This document shows, piece by piece, positions 1,711 to 37,433 of a DNA stretch of 64,000 bases (its first letter is position 1; every line of letters starts with the position of its first letter). The DNA lies in the NCBI RefSeq assembly GCF_030384885.1, contig NZ_CP128613.1; one strand, 5' to 3'. This stretch comes from Escherichia coli (GTDB lineage Bacteria; Pseudomonadota; Gammaproteobacteria; Enterobacterales; Enterobacteriaceae). The notes beneath the pieces are model-generated. The model saw only the letters and a program-made list of their open reading frames with translations. It was not told where the DNA came from and made no database searches. The position numbers and the translations under genes are program-made.

Positions 1711-1794
1711 ATTTAAGCTGATGACCACCACGCTTTTTATTGACCATTTTGCACGCAAACTGGAAAACCTGGCGTCGTCATCTATTCTTAAAGG

Positions 1795-1898
1795 GCAAGG
1801 CAACTAAGCCTGCATTAATGCCAACTTTTAGCGCACGGCTCTCTCCCAAGAGCCATTTCCCTGGACCGAATACAGGAATCGTGTTCGGTCTCTTTTTA
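1795..1898 (+). ncRNA. sdsR: RpoS-dependent small RNA SdsR (RyeB)
   Basis: Sequence GCAAGGCAACTAAGCCTGCATTAATGCCAACTTTTAGCGCACGG...CCGAATACAGGAATCGTGTTCGGTCTCTTTTT matches recalled SdsR (~104 nt); ends in hairpin plus T-run; CTATTCT -10-like element upstream. Confidence 0.85.
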
Positions 1899-2031
1899 TC
1901 TGTTAAAAGCCAGAAGCATTCCCTTCGCTGACTTTATAGTCAACCATAACACACACTCTACTGTCTGAGTCCAGCGTTTTTTAACATTCTTGTTAAGATT
2001 ATGTGATCTTTAGCGCGGGAGGAAAATATTG

Positions 2032-3338: not shown

Positions 3339-4778
3339 TCAGGCGTTACCTGTAAAAAGTTTCCCGTCCCGCACCAGTTCACGCGGGTAGCTGTTTTTCA
3401 GTCGCGAACCAATCCGTTTGGCTAAACCAATCGGCTGATGCTGGAAAGTAACCAATACATCATCCGCGACTGGCGCGGCTTGCGGGTAAACATCGCGCCC
3501 GCGATACCACTCTTCCGCTTCCTGCGGTGTCAGTTCAAAAGCGTTCACATTGTCGGGGGAGGCAAGGGCAATAACCGCTTCATGCTGCCAGCGATAACCT
3601 TTGTTATGTGTTTCGGCAAGTTTAATCCCCAACCGAGAAAATCGGACTTTACCGATCAAGGCTTCAATGCCCACCGGGAACAACCACAGTTCTTTGTCGC
3701 GTTGCCAGAGTCGCAGGTTTCCATCCCAGTTTAAGCCAACACTTGCAGCCGCCTGACGAATTTGACCGGCTTCGCGATCTTTCACCGGGCTAAACGGGAA
3801 ATTGCCCACTTTGTATTTTGGGGCGGGTAAGACGGGGATCGCCTGAGTTTTACGCAGACGAGCAACGAAGAAGCCTTCGCAGTCGTAAATTTGTGGGAAA
3901 ACATGCAAAAAGCCTTCTTCGGTCAGCGCCTTATTTGCACCAGGGAAGAGATCGCCAAGCGGTATAAACTCTACTGCGTCGGGGTAAGTCTCTTTCAGCC
4001 ACCGGCAGACGGCTTCATTTTCTTCCTGGTTTAAGGTACAGGTCGAGTAAATCAGCGTACCGCCAGGGCGTAATGCATGAAAGGCGCTGTCGATCAGTTC
4101 CCGTTGGGTAGCTGCGATTTCCTGATTGCTTTCTGGTGACCAGTTTTTTAGCGCATCGGGATCTTTACGCACCACGCCTTCGCCGGAGCAGGGAGCGTCC
4201 AGCAAAATGGCATCGAACATTTCTGGCACTGCCGCACCAAATACACGGCCATCAAAATGCGTGAGCGCAACATTACGGATGCCACAGCGGCTGATATTGG
4301 CATGTAACACTTTTACCCGACTGGCGGAAAACTCATTGGCAAGGATCTCCCCTTCGTTATTCATCCGCGCGGCAATTTGCGTCGTTTTGGAGCCGGGCGC
4401 GGCAGCGACATCCATCACCCGCTGTGGTGCATTACCGTCAGCAAACAAGGCGGCGACGGGCAACATTGAACTGGCTTCCTGAATATAAAACAGGCCACTT
4501 AAATGCTCGGCGGTACTACCCAATGGCAAGGCATCTTCATCGTCGCGTTCAATCCAGAAACCTTCTTCACACCACGGAATTGGCGTAAGCGTCCAGCCAT
4601 AAGGGGCGGTTAATTGCAGGAAATCAGCAACGGAGATTTTCAGCGTATTAACGCGAATACTGCGGCGCAACGGGCGCTGACAGGCGGCAAGAAAATCATC
4701 AAATGAGAGCGTCGAAGGCATTGCTTCGCGCATTTGTGTCAGAAAGGCGTCCGGGAAATAAACGGTGTGTTGGGCCAC
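3339..4778 (-). CDS. rsmF: 16S rRNA m5C1407 methyltransferase RsmF
   Basis: Product (M)[21 protein letters not shown]... with SAM-binding Sun/NOL1 core; 479 aa if initiated at the GTG (4778) rather than the upstream ATG. Confidence 0.9.
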
Positions 4779-4858
4779 GAGCATGTACCACTGGCAAAAA
4801 AAACAGGTGCGCAGTTTAGCATAAACGCTCCGGCGCAGGCACGCCGGAGCAGTGGGCA

Positions 4859-7492
4859 TTATTTGGGAAGCGCTGTTCCCCATTCACGCCACTCTTTCGG
4901 TTCACTTTCCTGCAACAGGAAGTGCTTGCCTTCCTGGGCTTTCGGTGCCAGCGGCGTACCCGGAGGCGTAGCGAAGGCGATGCCGCCACGGATAAACTGG
5001 TTAAAGGTGCCGGTTTTCACGACGCCGCCCGTCAGACCAAAGTCCAGACTGTAACCCGATGCCAACCAGAAGACGGAATTGTTACGCACCAGGTGTTGAT
5101 AGCGTTTACTGATGCGCATCGCAATCATCACGCGATCTGACAATGTCCCCAGCGTCATTCCGGTAACCGTACCGACTTCCAGACCACGGAACAGCACAGG
5201 CGTACCGATGCCTAACGAACCGGCTTCCGGCGCTTCAACAATAATGCTTAAGCCATCCAGGTAACGCGAATCAGTTATGGTGGCCTCTTGTAATTCAAAG
5301 TCGCGGCGAGGATTGCCCCGGCCTGGTTCGACGTTGATATACGGCTGGAGGATAGTATCAAGATGCTCAACGCCAGCTGCCGAAATTTGCGGTGTGACCA
5401 CTGAGAAGCGTGTACCACCGCGTGCAAAGGTCTGGACATATTCCGGATAGAGTACCGCCTTTGCCTGTACTTCATTGCGCGCGGTAATCAGATCCAGCGT
5501 CTGGATTTGCCCGATATCAATACCGAGATAGCGAATTGGCATCCCGACCGCCAGTTTTCCGGCATCGAAAGCGTGAAGCGTAATTTGCCCGCCAACCGCA
5601 CGGGCCGCTGTTTCGGAAGCATACAGAATACGCTTGTCGCCTTTACGCTGACTGGCGCTGGCACCGCTGAGGTTATCGAAGCTAATAGCTCCCTTTAATG
5701 CTCTGGAGAGCGGGGATGCCTGTACAGTCAGACCACTACCATTTAGCTGAACTTTCGCCCCACCTTCTGCCCAGAACACGCTGTTGCTGGTCAGAAGGTT
5801 GCGATACTCCGGCTTAATATGCAGATCGATATCAAACGCGTTAGCTCGCGGACGCACAGTAATAACTTCACCAACTTCAAATTTACGGTACAGCACTACC
5901 GATCCTGCCTGCACATCCGGCAGCGTCTCTGCACTCAAACTCACGGTTGTGGTGGGTAAATCGCTAAGGCTGTTCTCCAGCGCTTTTTCCAGATTGGCAT
6001 ACAGTGGATAGCTGGCTTTCATCTCGCCTTTATCGCCTGGCAGAATACGTATCCCGCCGTTAATCCATTCTGAGGCGCTGGCACCGAGAAACTCAACGCC
6101 ATCCAGCCCCACCTTCACGTCGACACGGCTGTTGACGACAAATTTGCTATCGCCTTTTACCAGTTCGCGATGCTGAGGCTCGATGGCGACGGTAAAGGTG
6201 ACGCCTTTGCTGGTGAGTTTACGATCGATAACCTGGCCTACCTGCACGCCGTGAAGAATGAGCGGCTGACCAGCATCAATACCGTAACTTTCCGGCGCAG
6301 TCAGGGTCAGCGTCAGAACATCTGGCTCATGGAGCAGGGCTTTTTCGCCAGGAACAACAATAAACTCTTTACGTGGCTCACCGTCGCCCGGCACCAACTC
6401 GAAGGTTTTGCCGGTCAGCAAGGTACTGAGATTAGCATCGCTAAGGGATAATTTTGGATTACGTAATTCGATGCGGGTATTTTCCCGTAACAGCGTTACG
6501 ACGCTGGGATCAACGGTCATTTCTCCGGTGACTTTACCGCCAGGATTTAAATCCAGTTTAGTCAGCTGTCCGACTTCCAGCCCCTGATACATTAACGGCG
6601 TAGAGTCGGCGGTTAATCCGGCCCCACTCGGCAGTTCCAGTTTTATTATTACGCCACGCTGGCTGTGGGCGAGATCTTCATACAGACCAAAGGTATCTTC
6701 CGCCTCGGCAGGTTTTGACTCTTCTGGCGAATCGAAGGCAATTGCACCGTTAACCAGTGCCGCCAGACTTTCCAGTTTCACTTTTGCGCCACTGATACTG
6801 ACGTTGGCATCAACGCCGGAAACGTTCCAGAAACGGCTACCTTTTTTCACCAGATCGGTAAAACGTCGCTCGATCAGGACATCAATCACTACGCCTTGCT
6901 TATTGGGATTGATGGCATAGTCGTAGACTTTACCCACCGGGATCTTACGGAAATATACCAATGAACCACTGTTCAGTGAACCGAGATCGGGGGCTTGCAG
7001 GTGGATCATCAGATCGCCGTTATCCAGCCGATATTTCGGTTGGGTATCGAGTGCGACAAAGTGATCCTGCTCTTTACCTTTACCCGGCATCATGCCGATA
7101 TAGTTACCCCCGACGAGGGCGTCCAGCCCGGAGACTCCTGCCAGCGAGGCTTTTGGCGTCACCAGCCAGAACTGTGTCTCCTCGCGCAGCGCATCTTTCA
7201 TATCGGACTTGATGCTGACTTTGACTTCAATCTTACGAAGATCGTCGCTCAGGCTGATATCTTGCACTGTTCCGACCTCAACGCCCTGATAACGAACAGG
7301 TGTGCGGCCCGGGACGATACCGTCCGCCGACATAAAGTCGATGGTGACGGTATTACCCCGATCCTGATAACTGTCCCAAATCAGCCAACCGGCAATCATA
7401 AGCGCGATGAACGGCAGCAGCCAGAAAGGTGAGATACGGCGTTTATTTTTAATCTGCGCTTCAGTCGTCGAAGCGGGCGTTTCCTGACTCAT
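4859..7492 (-). CDS. letB: Multi-MCE-domain periplasm-spanning lipid transport protein LetB (YebT)
   Basis: 877-aa product [36 protein letters not shown]... with repeated MCE domains; start at internal Met of ORF 4859..7534. Confidence 0.9.
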
Positions 7493-8744
7493 GTGCATCC
7501 CAAAGTAAGCGGCTGTCCAGCCATTCCACAGCAAGAATAGTCAAAATTACCGCTGCGCCGAAATAAAACGCAGCCGGTCCCATAGTAAAAGCGAGGATCT
7601 GATCGCGATTAATCAGCGACATGGTTAAAGATATGACAAACAGGTCGAGCATCGACCAGCGACCGATCCAGGTCACCATCCGCAGTAACAGAATCCGTGT
7701 GCGTAAACCTTGCTGGCATTTAAAATGAATGCTCAACAGTAAAGTGAACATGACGATCACTTTGGTAAATGGCACCAGAATACTGGCGATAAACACGATT
7801 CCGGCGACCGCAATGTTGCTACTTGCCAGCGACATAATCCCGGAAAGAATCGTATCTTCCTGCCGGCCACCATTCAGATAAATGATAGAAATAGGTAACA
7901 GGTTGGCAGGTAACAACAACACGATTGATGCTAACAGCGCCGCCCAGCACTTTTGCAGACTATGACGGCGACGCAGGCGTAGCGGGATATGGCAACGCGG
8001 GCAGCGACCACGCTGATCGGGATAGCCGGTAAAATGGCATCCCAGGCAGACACGAAGTTTCTCGTCCCTACGCGTAGCGGGGCGCTGTGGATAAAATCGC
8101 GCCCACAGTTCCTCGACATTAAGATGTGACAACGTCACCGTGGTCAATATCACTAATGCAACAAAAGAGAACAGACCAATACCCGCCTGAATGTGCGCAT
8201 AATCCTGCACCTTTATAGAAGCAACGCCAATACCGACCAGATAGATGTCCAGCATCACCCACTCTTTCAATCGCTCAAGCATCAGCAGTACCGGGCGTAG
8301 ATTCATTCCCAGTCGGTTACCAAACCATAAATAAGCTATGGAGGTCACCAGAATAAGGGGGGCACCAATAACGCAAAAAAAGACCATCGCCCCCGTTATT
8401 GCATCGCCCTGTTTGGTCATTTGCCAGATGCCTTGCATGACATTGGCGTCAATACGAATACCTAACAGCCAGATATGCAACAGCGGTTCGCCCCAGGCAA
8501 ACGGCATCAGCAACAGCATGGTGAATGCCATTGCTGCCAGGCGCGTTAGCGACCAGTCGCGCCCGTCACGAATTTTTGCCTGACAGCGCGGACAATAGGC
8601 ACTTTGATGAGAGTTTATCTCGGGTAGGCTAAACAGCATGTCACATTGCGGGCAACGTTGGTAATCACCACGCGGCAGTTCCTCGCAAATTGCCCTCACT
8701 GTTATCTTTTTTGTCGGCGTAATTTGTGGTGTGTTAAGAGCCAT
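7461..8744 (-). CDS. letA: PqiA-family inner-membrane protein LetA (YebS)
   Basis: 427-aa product with Cys-rich zinc-ribbon-like segments (CPQCD...CPRCQ; CLGCH...CPRCH) and TM helices; 3' end overlaps letB start by 32 nt. Confidence 0.9.
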
Positions 8745-8873
8745 GACGTGCCAAATGTAATAAGAATTAACATTAATCTTAACCCATGATGGGAATGATC
8801 TTGAGCATTAACGCATTTAATGCTTATTTTAATAGGCTGGCAGTTCCAGGTAAGACAACCAAGTGATTATATA

Positions 8874-16795: not shown

Positions 16796-17410
16796 ATTAT
16801 ACGCACTGTCATGGTGCAACTGCTTCAATTTAAAACTCTGGTCTGACTTCAAATAATTATCATATTATTTATTTGCGTAACGGGATATCAGAAAAAGATA
16901 TTTAGCCCATTAATTTATTAGGATGTTTACATCGGATTTGTGATTAAGCGTGTTATTATTTATTAGCGAAACGTTTCTCTCTTGATTTTTTTGCGCATTC
17001 ATCAATTTTTCTTATTTTAAATTTACAATACCTTTGGGGATTGACTTCTCTTTGGGGTGATTGATAGCCGTTAACTGACTGTTTTATGAGAAAAAGTGAT
17101 ATAACTTTTTATTCATTGCATAGCAGAAAATGTGATATTGCACGCACTATGTAATAACTTCTCCCATTGGCCTGGAACAACTGAACTTATTGAACTATGT
17201 TAGAAAATACGTCAGTTTAAGTATCTGCCTGAACTGGCAAGGTTAAGCACAATGATATATCGGCGCGTATTCCGTTGCATAAGTGTGCAAAAAAAGTGGA
17301 AGACGTATCGAGATTTGTGCGTCTGATCGAGACATGTTTAAAAATGGCTTGCCATAATTAACGTTGTATGTGATAACAGATTTCGGGTTAAACGAGGTAC
17401 AGTTCTGTTT

Positions 17411-17554
17411 ATGTGTGGCATTTTCAGTAAAGAAGTCCTGAGTAAACACGTTGACGTTGAATACCGCTTCTCTGCCGAGCCTTATATTGGTGCCTCATGC
17501 AGTAATGTGTCAGTTTTATCTATGTTATGCCTGCGGGCGAAGAAAACAATCTAA
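17411..17554 (+). CDS. yobF: Small protein YobF (47 aa), co-transcribed with cspC
   Basis: ATG ORF (below track threshold) giving [47 protein letters not shown]; ends 12 nt before cspC. Confidence 0.8.
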
Positions 17555-17566
17555 GGAATTTTTCAA

Positions 17567-17776
17567 ATGGCAAAGATTAAAGGTCAGGTTAAGTGGTTCA
17601 ACGAGTCTAAAGGTTTTGGCTTCATTACTCCGGCTGATGGCAGCAAAGACGTGTTCGTACACTTCTCCGCTATCCAGGGTAATGGCTTCAAAACTCTGGC
17701 TGAAGGTCAGAACGTTGAGTTCGAAATTCAGGACGGTCAGAAAGGTCCGGCAGCTGTTAACGTAACAGCTATCTGA
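17567..17776 (+). CDS. cspC: Cold-shock-domain protein CspC
   Basis: 69-aa product [37 protein letters not shown]... with RNP1/RNP2 motifs. Confidence 0.95.
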
Positions 17777-17822
17777 TCGAATCCACTGATCTGAAGTGTG
17801 AAGACACTTCAATCTCGCTATA

Positions 17823-17849
17823 AAGCCTCGTCGAATGCGAGGCTTTTTA
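17823..17849 (+). terminator. Intrinsic terminator after cspC
   Basis: Hairpin AAGCCTCG-TCGAAT-GCGAGGCTT followed by TTTT. Confidence 0.8.
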
Positions 17850-17941
17850 CTTTGTTTTATCTTCGCTCCTGGCGTTCGGATATTTGCCCGCCGCGTGATT
17901 CGCGTTACACTTGCGGCCTTTAGTATCCTGCCGGAGTTGTC

Positions 17942-35702: not shown

Positions 35703-37388
35703 TTGAAGAAGGTTTGGCTTAACCGTTATCCCGCGGACGTTCCGACGGAGATCAACCCTGACCGTTATCAATCTCTGGTAGATATGTTTGAGCAGTCGGT
35801 CGCGCGCTACGCCGATCAACCCGCGTTTGTGAATATGGGGGAGGTGATGACCTTCCGCAAACTGGAAGAACGCAGTCGCGCGTTTGCCGCTTATTTGCAA
35901 CAAGGGTTGGGACTGAAGAAAGGCGATCGCGTTGCGTTGATGATGCCTAATTTATTGCAATATCCGGTGGCGCTGTTTGGCATTTTGCGTGCCGGGATGA
36001 TTGTCGTAAACGTTAACCCGTTGTATACCCCGCGTGAACTTGAGCATCAGCTTAACGATAGCGGCGCATCGGCGATTGTTATCGTGTCTAACTTTGCCCA
36101 CACTCTGGAAAAAGTGGTTGATAAAACCGCCGTTCAGCACGTTATTCTGACCCGTATGGGCGATCAGCTATCCACGGCAAAAGGCACGGTAGTCAATTTC
36201 GTTGTTAAATACATCAAGCGTCTGGTGCCGAAATACCATCTGCCAGATGCCATTTCATTTCGTAGCGCCCTGCACAACGGCTACCGGATGCAGTACGTCA
36301 AACCCGAACTGGTGCCGGAAGATTTAGCTTTCCTGCAATATACCGGCGGTACCACTGGTGTGGCGAAAGGCGCGATGCTGACTCACCGCAATATGCTGGC
36401 GAATCTGGAACAAGTTAACGCGACTTACGGGCCGCTGTTGCATCCGGGCAAAGAGCTGGTGGTGACGGCACTGCCGCTGTATCACATTTTTGCGCTGACC
36501 ATTAACTGCCTGCTGTTTATTGAACTGGGCGGGCAGAACCTGCTTATCACTAACCCGCGCGATATTCCGGGGTTGGTAAAAGAGTTAGCGAAATATCCGT
36601 TTACCGCGATAACCGGCGTTAACACCTTGTTCAATGCGTTGCTGAACAATAAAGAGTTCCAGCAGCTGGATTTCTCCAGTCTGCACCTTTCCGCAGGCGG
36701 TGGGATGCCTGTTCAGCAAGTGGTGGCAGAACGTTGGGTGAAACTGACAGGACAGTATCTGCTGGAAGGTTATGGCCTGACCGAGTGTGCGCCGCTGGTC
36801 AGCGTTAACCCGTATGATATTGATTATCATAGTGGTAGCATCGGTTTGCCGGTGCCGTCGACGGAAGCCAAACTGGTGGATGATGATGATAATGAAGTAC
36901 CACCGGGTCAACCGGGTGAGCTTTGTGTCAAAGGACCGCAGGTGATGCTGGGTTACTGGCAGCGTCCGGATGCTACCGATGAAATCATCAAAAATGGCTG
37001 GTTACACACCGGCGATATCGCGGTGATGGATGAAGAAGGATTCCTGCGCATTGTCGATCGTAAAAAAGACATGATTCTGGTTTCCGGTTTTAACGTCTAT
37101 CCCAACGAGATTGAAGATGTCGTCATGCAGCATCCTGGCGTACAGGAAGTCGCGGCTGTTGGCGTACCTTCCGGCTCCAGTGGTGAAGCGGTGAAAATCT
37201 TCGTTGTGAAAAAAGATCCATCGCTTACCGAAGAGTCACTGGTGACTTTTTGCCGCCGTCAGCTCACGGGCTACAAAGTACCGAAGCTGGTAGAGTTTCG
37301 TGATGAGTTACCGAAATCTAACGTCGGAAAAATTTTGCGACGAGAATTACGTGACGAAGCGCGCGGCAAAGTGGACAATAAAGCCTGA
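35703..37388 (+). CDS. fadD: Long-chain-fatty-acid--CoA ligase FadD
   Basis: 561-aa product (M)[31 protein letters not shown]... with AMP-binding motif ([12 protein letters not shown]); initiates at TTG 35703, not at the upstream in-frame ATG. Confidence 0.92.
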
Positions 37389-37405
37389 GCGTTAAGTCAG
37401 TCGTC

Positions 37406-37433
37406 AGACGCCGGTTAATCCGGCGTTTTTTTT
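37406..37433 (+). terminator. Intrinsic terminator after fadD, immediately upstream of rnd
   Basis: GACGCCGG-TTAAT-CCGGCGT hairpin followed by T8. Confidence 0.8.

Follow-up and report, generated by a model that had tools for sequence, protein, structure and literature searches.

The closest known counterpart of the locus studied here is the letA–letB (yebS–yebT) pair of Escherichia coli K-12 (b1833–b1834; PDB 9n8w/9n8x and 6v0c–6v0j). Its products assemble into a LetA1:LetB6 complex (PMC13017536). The mass of the LetAB complex, ~670 kDa, agrees with the 1:6 ratio, and LetA and LetB appear as separate chains on purification (PMC13017536). In the cryo-EM model, six transmembrane (TM) helices anchor the LetB hexamer (PMC13017536), and the six LetB subunits stack as seven rings, giving a hydrophobic tunnel of ~225 Å across the periplasm (PMC13017536; bioRxiv 10.1101/748145). 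One LetA sits under ring 1, where it opens the ring and loads phospholipid into the tunnel (PMC13017536). The phenotypes of let mutants are redundant with pqi (PMC13017536). The paraquat-inducible MCE system PqiA–PqiB–PqiC is paralogous, since there, too, the gene of a two-module PqiA-type membrane protein adjoins that of a periplasm-spanning protein with several MCE domains, and an ABC transporter is likewise absent. On the other hand, PqiB has three MCE domains and a coiled-coil needle whereas LetB has seven MCE domains, pqi includes a third gene, pqiC, and pqiA and pqiB lie 4 nt apart in K-12, in contrast to the 32-nt overlap of letA and letB. LetB and the MlaFEDB system share the MCE/MlaD domain (PF02470), whose hexameric rings serve phospholipid transport. 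MlaD, however, has a single MCE domain and acts together with an ABC transporter, MlaFE, and a shuttle protein, MlaC, whereas letAB has no flanking ABC genes.

The window analysed here is a stretch of 64,000 nucleotides of E. coli DNA. The ORF list and the junction sequence place a letA–letB pair on its minus strand, with letA at 7461..8744 and letB at 4859..7492 (Table 1). The ORFs as called were one of 427 aa beginning with ATG (7461..8744) and one of 891 aa with TTG as its first codon (4859..7534). RefSeq gives the same coordinates for both genes, in an E. coli genome that is 100% identical. The DNA is 100% identical to that of strain 2013C-4282 and 95–99% identical to that of most E. coli, and all but two of the 5426 complete E. 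coli genomes (5424) have letAB; this is a conserved, genuine gene pair and no chance ORF. Its neighbours are msrC, proQ and prc on one side and rsmF and yebV on the other, as in K-12, and ABC transporter genes are absent beside it, the immediate flanks being msrC and rsmF. Genes, overlap, neighbours and domain architecture are the same as in K-12, the differences being strain-level substitutions only. No evidence contradicting the identification was found. Taken as one joint statement, it is highly probable that the region is the E. coli letA–letB operon, that letB starts at 7492 and that letB would be initiated through facilitated coupling. The genes have already been published and correctly annotated, together with their structure, the 32-bp overlap and the letB start codon; what is new here is the conservation of the start in 80 species, the counts of overlap lengths and the collapse of synonymous variation at the 3' end of letA.

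Table 1. Features of the letA–letB locus, with positions in the window.
Feature	Position	Strand	Basis
letB (yebT) CDS, 877 aa, MSQETPAS...	4859..7492	-	ORF, junction sequence, Pfam, K-12 b1834, PDB
LetB single N-terminal TM helix, residues ~20-41	7370..7435	-	Kyte-Doolittle scan
LetB MCE domain 1, residues 45-137	7082..7360	-	Pfam MlaD, 73.9 bits
LetB MCE domain 2, Pfam-matched core, residues 163-223	6824..7006	-	MlaD, 38.9 bits
LetB MCE domain 3, residues 280-353	6434..6655	-	MlaD, 45.1 bits
LetB MCE domain 4, residues 394-455	6128..6313	-	MlaD, 36.0 bits
LetB MCE domain 5, residues 514-589	5726..5953	-	MlaD, 28.2 bits
LetB MCE domain 6, residues 636-724	5321..5587	-	MlaD, 53.5 bits
LetB MCE domain 7, residues 747-808	5069..5254	-	MlaD, 47.3 bits
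letA (yebS) CDS, 427 aa, ATG start, TGA stop	7461..8744	-	ORF, TIGR00155, K-12 b1833, PDB 9n8w_A, RefSeq
LetA N-terminal zinc-ribbon Cys4, C31/C34/C51/C54 (CPQC...CPRC)	8583..8654	-	motif location
LetA C-terminal zinc-ribbon Cys4, C233/C236/C248/C251 (CLGC...CPRC)	7992..8048	-	motif location
PqiA/LetA module 1 (transmembrane domain N), residues 66-217	8094..8549	-	PF04403, 134.5 bits, profile 1-155/156
PqiA/LetA module 2 (transmembrane domain C), residues 263-418	7491..7958	-	PF04403, 149.2 bits
letA/letB overlap, 32 nt	7461..7492	-	junction sequence, RefSeq, K-12 annotation
Nearly invariant nucleotide block, ~-54 to +50 of letB start, ~105 nt	7443..7546	-	synonymous entropy, per-base conservation
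Weak Shine-Dalgarno-like GGGA, 5 nt 5' of letB ATG	7498..7501	-	TTTGGGA invariant in 80/80 species
Upstream in-frame ATG (-6), first ATG of ORF	7496..7498	-	ATG in 53/80, ACG in 25, ATA in 2 species
TTG at -42, first possible start of mechanical 891-aa ORF	7532..7534	-	present in 77/80 species
Divergent intergenic region letA/msrC	8745..8873	.	RefSeq annotation
Terminator-like GC-rich hairpin directly past letB stop, 11 bp, 8 GC	4826..4851	-	consensus scan

The product of letA, the lipid-loading subunit in the inner membrane, is identical to K-12 LetA (b1833) at 423 of 427 residues, with the substitutions G20C, S119A, V189I and E215A, and matches residues 19–445 of PDB 9n8w_A, the LetAB complex being that of 9n8w/9n8x. 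The PqiA/YebS family model TIGR00155 gave 702.3 bits at a cut-off of 260.35. Two tandem PqiA modules, each preceded by a Cys4 ribbon, characterize this family together with a location directly 5' of a multi-MCE gene; LetA contains both modules and both ribbons, and letA lies directly 5' of letB. When the two halves of LetA were aligned to each other, 51 of 174 residues were identical. A weak match to zf-FPG_IleRS covered residues 29–55, and the C-terminal Cys4 cluster corresponds to the segment designated ZnR-C (residues 219–261) in K-12 LetA, for which ICP-MS detected ~2 Zn per LetA (PMC13017536). The PqiA equivalog NF011683 scored 210.7 bits, below its cut-off of 562. On these matches, we assign the 427-aa protein as the LetA orthologue (b1833) and not PqiA (b0950).

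The 877-aa product of letB differs from K-12 LetB (b1834) by S35G, A357T and V378I (874/877 identical). It matches PDB 9n8w_B over residues 1–877 with 1951 bits and 6v0c over residues 46–877, and also 6kz3/6kz4. The N-terminal helix was the only hydrophobic segment in a Kyte-Doolittle scan. With the segments of the protein scanned separately, all seven MCE domains exceeded the MlaD (PF02470) gathering cut-off of 25.1, at 28.2–73.9 bits. LetB-type proteins carry six to eight tandem MCE domains after one N-terminal TM helix, and seven were found here. The PqiB equivalog (477.4 bits; cut-off 525) and the MlaD equivalog (73.1; cut-off 135) both stayed below threshold, and the protein is assigned by these comparisons as the LetB orthologue (b1834). 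The initial annotation had described a PqiA-like protein of 427 aa with two Cys4 clusters and an 877-aa protein with repeated MCE domains, and had taken them for the known, well-described letA–letB system, with LetB as a periplasm-spanning lipid tunnel. PF04403 indeed matched twice and both clusters were located. The domain scan had been named beforehand as the refutation should multiple MCE domains be missing; it gave seven MlaD matches and the claim stands. The identity of the system is borne out by the identity to K-12, the PDB matches, RefSeq and the literature, and the tunnel has been shown for the 99%-identical K-12 protein (PMC13017536; bioRxiv 10.1101/748145). The phospholipid tunnel function, established experimentally in K-12, is carried over from there to the LetAB of this window, which would act in the same way.

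At the junction, the letA stop codon TGA occupies 7461..7463, and letB is read in the +1 frame with respect to letA. The overlap encodes LetA residues 418–427 with the stop and LetB residues 1–11, and the tails concerned (LetA 419–427, LetB 1–13) are not resolved in the cryo-EM model. The end of the second LetA module coincides exactly with the start of the letB ATG. A 32-bp overlap is stated in the 2026 Nature paper on LetA (PMC13017536), and the annotation of K-12 MG1655 likewise has 32 nt. We compared the junction among 80 Enterobacteriaceae species, the relatives returned all having at least 82% identity. Of these species, 76 have an overlap of 32 nt and the other four one of 44 nt. As pqiA and pqiB do not overlap, the overlap is no requirement of the family, and it is ruled out as a family trait.

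Concerning the start codon, letB has in-frame ATGs at 7498 and 7492, the latter giving the product of 877 aa. The ATG at 7492 was invariant in all 80 Enterobacteriaceae species. The ATG at position -6 is near-universal in complete E. coli genomes, and 26 of the 27 species that lack it are not E. coli. The remaining case is the GTDB representative of E. coli, whose ATA does not occur in any complete E. coli genome, so that the evidence against the -6 ATG is mostly between-species. For the ATG at 7492, the best anti-Shine-Dalgarno (SD) duplex at a suitable spacing had an energy of -4.0 kcal/mol, corresponding to an SD of four base pairs, one of them G-U, whereas the alternative starts reached -3.0 kcal/mol, and only at spacings of 13–16 nt. 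The invariance of the ATG at 7492 and the loss of the upstream ATG in 27 species support the annotated start, that is, initiation of letB at the second ATG, the sole start conserved across the Enterobacteriaceae. The initial annotation had pointed out both the 32-nt overlap and an internal letB start that is not the first ATG; the junction sequence and RefSeq agree with the former, and the counts for 7492 (80/80) and 7498 (53/80) with the latter. The practical value lies in a confirmed annotation with the 877-aa LetB start, as mechanical calling results in 891 aa (TTG) or 879 aa (first ATG) while conservation across species favours 877 aa.

We also examined synonymous variation around the junction. 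The normalised synonymous entropy of letA was 0.67 gene-wide and decreased to 0.20, 0.13 and 0.11 in codons 401–410, 411–420 and 421–427, respectively. In letB, it was 0.12 in codons 1–10, 0.37 in codons 11–20 and ~0.7 thereafter. Variation in letA collapses from ~50 nt 5' of the letB ATG, and letB recovers by codon 21. This collapse points to an extended, conserved initiation region inside letA, and the block at 7443..7546 is most likely the extended translation-initiation region of letB embedded in the 3' end of letA.

The initial annotation had taken the overlap to imply that the translation of letA and letB would be tightly coupled, with which the weak SD and the ordinary predicted structure at the letB start agree. 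The calculated energy for opening the letB initiation region was 14.0 kcal/mol (38th percentile; background 15.7±4.0), and that for letA was 8.6 kcal/mol (2nd percentile), a very open region with almost no SD (-1.5 kcal/mol). Because the letB region does not open more readily than average mRNA, ribosomes that complete letA probably assist its unfolding, and letB would be initiated at a conserved weak-SD region within the last ~50 nt of letA. Strict 1:1 termination–reinitiation is hard to reconcile with a LetA:LetB ratio of 1:6. A plasmid with refactored, non-overlapping letA and letB was used in a functional deep mutational scan (PMC13017536), which implies that the system works without the overlap, at least when plasmid-borne. 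The 1:6 stoichiometry and this plasmid argue against an obligatory 1:1 coupling, and the coupling would be of a facilitated kind. The support for facilitated coupling of letB, which probably takes place, consists of computed RNA energies and conservation. Neither YebS nor YebT is named in the supplementary data of Mori 2021 or Burkhardt 2017, and a literature search combining ribosome profiling with yebS/yebT found nothing. The locus raises the question of how a pair overlapping by 32 nt yields a 1:6 subunit ratio, which concerns translation control at the level of the operon and no new kind of system.

Several alternatives were weighed against facilitated coupling from the ATG at 7492. The overlap might have no role in expression at all, with free 30S subunits initiating letB independently and the overlap being a historical accident of the stop position. 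The demand of the LetA1:LetB6 complex for more LetB than LetA would fit such independence, as would the use of the refactored plasmid in published assays, the shifted stop in the four species with a 44-nt overlap that nevertheless keep the gene pair, and the separate pqiA and pqiB. Against this, the SD available to a free subunit is short and weak, the letB region is structured like average internal mRNA in contrast to the letA start, and the 32-nt overlap has been kept in 76 of 80 species; we regard independent initiation as unlikely, though it is the alternative to be taken most seriously. A longer LetB isoform could account for the whole or a part of the protein, starting from ATG 7498 (+2 aa) or TTG 7534 (+14 aa) and making the upstream block dual coding. 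Neither codon has an SD-like sequence at a usable spacing, the -6 ATG has become ACG or ATA in 27 of 80 species, three species lack the TTG, and the extension frame has radical substitutions (L>Q, W>L/S, T>I, M>T). These observations outweigh a letB frame that is open for 48 nt 5' of the ATG in 80/80 species, a TTG retained in 77 of them and a -6 ATG essentially fixed among complete E. coli genomes. The constraint on synonymous sites of letA does begin near -52, close to the TTG, but the conserved block begins 10 nt before this codon and has no purine-rich motif there. A longer isoform is thus very improbable, and as far as the evidence goes the TTG appears not to be used as a start.

The extended initiation region was further set against the possibility that LetB output is set by the ~105-nt block as a distinct regulatory RNA, which would act as a structured switch or be bound by a protein or sRNA (CsrA, for example, given two GGA motifs). 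The constraint does exceed a minimal ribosome-binding site, reaching ~50 nt 5' of the start and ~20 nt past the overlap. The block encodes only disordered protein tails and is yet nearly invariant in 80 species. Uncommon Leu codons (TTA, CTT) are invariant within it, which points to selection on nucleotides, and a small hairpin, GGCU-GGAY-AGCC, has its sole variable base in the loop, with a GGA also at the SD. The predicted folds, however, do not support a structured element. The single-sequence fold was no more stable than shuffled sequences (z = -1.29), its helix is broken by an uncompensated G>A in seven species, and compensatory changes were found in 0 of 26 predicted pairs of a consensus fold from 37 species, although the sequences vary little, which limits the power of this comparison. 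Rfam gave no match at the junction even at E ≤ 1, and a junction RNA structure was rejected as unsupported. A distinct regulatory RNA is accordingly considered improbable, and we likewise have little confidence that the block is a dedicated translational control element that sets the 1:6 LetA:LetB synthesis or responds to an RNA-binding regulator. It is a matter of speculation that CsrA might bind at the GGA of the hairpin loop and at GGGAUG at the SD; no relevant paper connecting yebS or yebT with CsrA turned up in a literature search. A programmed +1 frameshift was also considered, in which tRNA-Leu slips on CUU-U at letA codon 414 to generate a LetA–LetB fusion. The slip site of prfB is CUU U, which the CUU UGG found here resembles, and letB is in the +1 frame and open from 48 nt 5' of its ATG. 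On the other hand, no slow or stop codon follows the CUU and no stimulatory SD is present 3 nt upstream. The purified complex contains LetA and LetB as separate chains, its ~670 kDa fits 1:6, and the PDB chains are of 445 aa (LetA with tag) and 877 aa. The published gels and structures effectively refute a fusion, for which the likelihood is close to nil.

Finally, the flanks of the pair and the conserved block were scanned for transcription signals. The letAB promoter is presumably situated in the letA–msrC intergenic region, where a consensus scan did not find a strong sigma-70 consensus. Within the block, the TTGACT at -52..-47 is similar to a -35 hexamer, but the scan found no -10 element at 16–18 nt, and an internal promoter was rejected. 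The letB–rsmF spacer of 80 nt contains the hairpin at 4826..4851, whose T-run is weak (TTTATGCT). Terminator-like sites in the region are no more numerous than in shuffled sequences, and this hairpin is at most a putative terminator.

Concerning the letA-letB (yebS-yebT) pair, the initial annotation had placed the two genes at 4859-8744 with a 32-nt overlap and a letB start that is not the first ATG. ORF calling and the junction sequence agreed with these coordinates, lengths and overlap. On the minus strand, the junction reads ...CTT TGG GAT GCA CAT GAG TCA GGA AAC GCC CGC TTC GAC GAC TGA in the letA frame and TTG CTG TGG AAT GGC TGG ACA GCC GCT TAC TTT GGG ATG CAC ATG AGT CAG... in the letB frame, which is +1 relative to letA. 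ATG occurs twice in the letB frame, at 7498 and at 7492, and the 877-aa product starts at 7492, indeed not at the first of them. As letA ends at 7461, the overlap spans 7461..7492. The RefSeq coordinates of yebS and yebT, with rsmF, msrC, proQ and prc as neighbours, are exactly those found in the window, and the counterparts in K-12 MG1655, letA (b1833) and letB (b1834), likewise overlap by 32 nt.

Features at and around the letA-letB junction and elsewhere in the window
Feature	Position	Strand	Remarks
letA ORF	7461..8744	-	427 aa, ATG start
letB mechanical ORF	4859..7534	-	891 aa, counted from TTG
Nearly invariant nucleotide block	7443..7546	-	about -54 to +50 around the letB ATG; 80 species
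Predicted 7-bp hairpin	7457..7475	-	CGCUUCG-N5-UGAAGCG; consensus fold; 3' arm contains letA stop UGA
GC-rich palindrome	4826..4851	-	perfect; 11-bp stem, 4-nt loop, then weak T-run; 8 nt past letB stop, ahead of rsmF
Mechanical rsmF ORF	3339..4883	-	514 aa from ATG 4883; extends into letB 3' end
Antisense ORF	6995..7432	+	145 aa; faces 5' part of letB
SraC/RyeA and SdsR/RyeB	1757..1901	- and +	overlapping antisense sRNA pair
cspA-type thermoregulator 5' leader	17391..17851	+	Rfam, 135 bits
sroD sRNA	37347..37432	+	Rfam, 115 bits

The protein sequences bear out the proposed identities. In a Pfam scan the 427-aa protein matched PqiA twice and the 877-aa protein matched MlaD (MCE) seven times; both LetA halves passed PqiA when scanned singly, and all seven segments cut from LetB individually exceeded the MlaD gathering score. 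The two Cys4 clusters claimed for LetA were located as CxxC...CxxC at residues 31/34/51/54 and 233/236/248/251, and LetB has a single hydrophobic segment (approximately residues 20-41). In NCBIfam, LetA belongs to TIGR00155 (PqiA/YebS family, 702 bits). Both proteins score under the PqiA, PqiB and MlaD equivalog cut-offs, which identifies them as Let paralogues rather than members of the Pqi or Mla systems. Identity to the K-12 proteins is 423/427 for LetA and 874/877 for LetB, with end-to-end matches to structures of the LetAB complex (9n8w/9n8x) and of LetB (6v0c-6v0j, 6kz3/6kz4, 6vci). Taken together, the ORFs, domains, K-12 identity and solved structures confirmed the observation and supported its letA-letB interpretation. 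The letAB DNA is 100% identical in E. coli 2013C-4282 and was found in 5424 of 5426 complete E. coli genomes. Among the 5427 matching places, one lies on a plasmid-labelled record and one genome carries two copies, which may reflect an artefact of assembly or labelling, or else a plasmid that carries a large piece of chromosome.

The system, overlap included, is already known in detail. A LetB hexamer is bound by one LetA, and the seven MCE domains of each LetB form seven stacked rings with a hydrophobic tunnel of ~225 A, whose ring 1 is held open by LetA positioned beneath (Santarossa et al., Nature 2026, PMC13017536). The two zinc ribbons of LetA bind about two Zn, with metal-coordinating cysteines intolerant of mutation; in a Delta-pqiAB background, loss of letA or letB leads to sensitivity to cholate and to lauryl sulfobetaine; and a model was proposed in which phospholipid is exported from the inner membrane, with directionality and energy source left open (PMC13017536). 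The overlap singled out in the initial annotation is also on record there. The sole additions made here, both minor, are comparative support for the annotated letB start and a description of an extended conserved initiation block.

The letB start was compared in 80 Enterobacteriaceae species, including Escherichia, Citrobacter, Salmonella, Enterobacter, Kosakonia, Cedecea and Kluyvera, whose LetB N termini are 82-100% identical to the query. The annotated ATG is unchanged in all 80, whereas the ATG six nucleotides upstream (-6) is kept in 53, being ACG in 25 and ATA in 2 through a synonymous GAT>GAC change in letA codon 416 or GCA>ACA in codon 417. The species representative of E. coli, L002, accounts for one of the two ATA cases; across complete E. 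coli genomes the -6 ATG shows essentially no variation, so that the argument is mostly a between-species one. The invariant TTTGGGA upstream of the annotated ATG gives the best anti-Shine-Dalgarno (SD) duplex (-4.0 kcal/mol) at suitable spacing, while the alternative starts reach only -3.0 kcal/mol with spacings of 13-16 nt. An N-terminally extended LetB was rejected, since the alternative starts vary between species and substitutions in the upstream frame are radical. On this sequence comparison, the annotated 877-aa start is the best supported.

Conservation extends well beyond this codon. The overlap is 32 nt long in 76 of the 80 species and 44 nt in the other four, which have lost the TGA and terminate at the next TAA. 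Synonymous variation in letA, calculated from 60 ungapped orthologues as normalised codon entropy, is ~0.67 gene-wide and drops near the 3' end to 0.20 (codons 401-410), 0.13 (411-420) and 0.11 (421-427); for letB it is 0.12 in codons 1-10 and 0.37 in codons 11-20, and reaches ordinary levels from codon 21 on. Dual coding accounts only for letA codons 418-427, but the constraint starts ~50 nt farther upstream, where synonymous sites of codons 401-417 are held fixed, those of the uncommon Leu codons TTA and CTT among them. The overlap encodes LetA 418-427 and LetB 1-11. Because the cryo-EM model resolves neither encoded tail (LetA 419-427 and LetB 1-13; PMC13017536) and the second Pfam PqiA module ends at LetA residue 418, selection on the nucleotide sequence, and probably on the letB translation-initiation region, would explain the conservation most simply.

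As for the claim of tight translational coupling, the computed opening energy of the letB initiation region (14.0 kcal/mol; operon background 15.7±4.0; 38th percentile) indicates that it is not unusually open, and that of the letA start is 8.6 kcal/mol (2nd percentile), exceptionally unstructured, with almost no SD pairing at the start codon (8744; -1.5 kcal/mol). This pattern fits letB initiation aided by ribosomes that translate the last part of letA. Strict 1:1 reinitiation, however, is hard to square with one LetA per six LetB. The published deep mutational scan used a refactored, non-overlapping plasmid (PMC13017536), which shows the overlap to be dispensable, and the paralogous pqiA-pqiB, unlike letA-letB, do not overlap. 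Taking these three points into account, we consider facilitated coupling plausible, although unproven. None of the rival readings was supported. For a conserved RNA structure, the fold was no more stable than shuffled sequence (z = -1.29), with no Rfam hit and 0/26 compensatory pairs; as the block is too invariant for covariation tests, a regulatory element keeps a low probability. An internal promoter lacks a -10 hexamer at proper spacing; no support for a CsrA site at the junction was found in the literature; and a +1 frameshift LetA-LetB fusion lacks stimulatory elements, with separate chains in the published complex. Within the overlap, variation is confined to letA codon 426/letB codon 9, in the loop of the predicted hairpin. 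With zero compensatory changes, the hairpin is indistinguishable from dual-coding constraint.

Outside the junction, the promoter scan gave no strong sigma-70 consensus in the 129-nt spacer between letA and the divergent msrC (8745..8873). The palindrome downstream of letB may act as a partial terminator separating letB from rsmF. A longest-ORF call would be wrong for rsmF too, since its annotated start is a GTG at 4778 (479 aa). Long antisense ORFs such as that facing letB are common opposite coding sequence of such G+C content. The SraC/RyeA-SdsR/RyeB pair gave the high Rfam scores expected for this E. coli region, and the cspA-type leader and sroD are members of known families unrelated to letAB.
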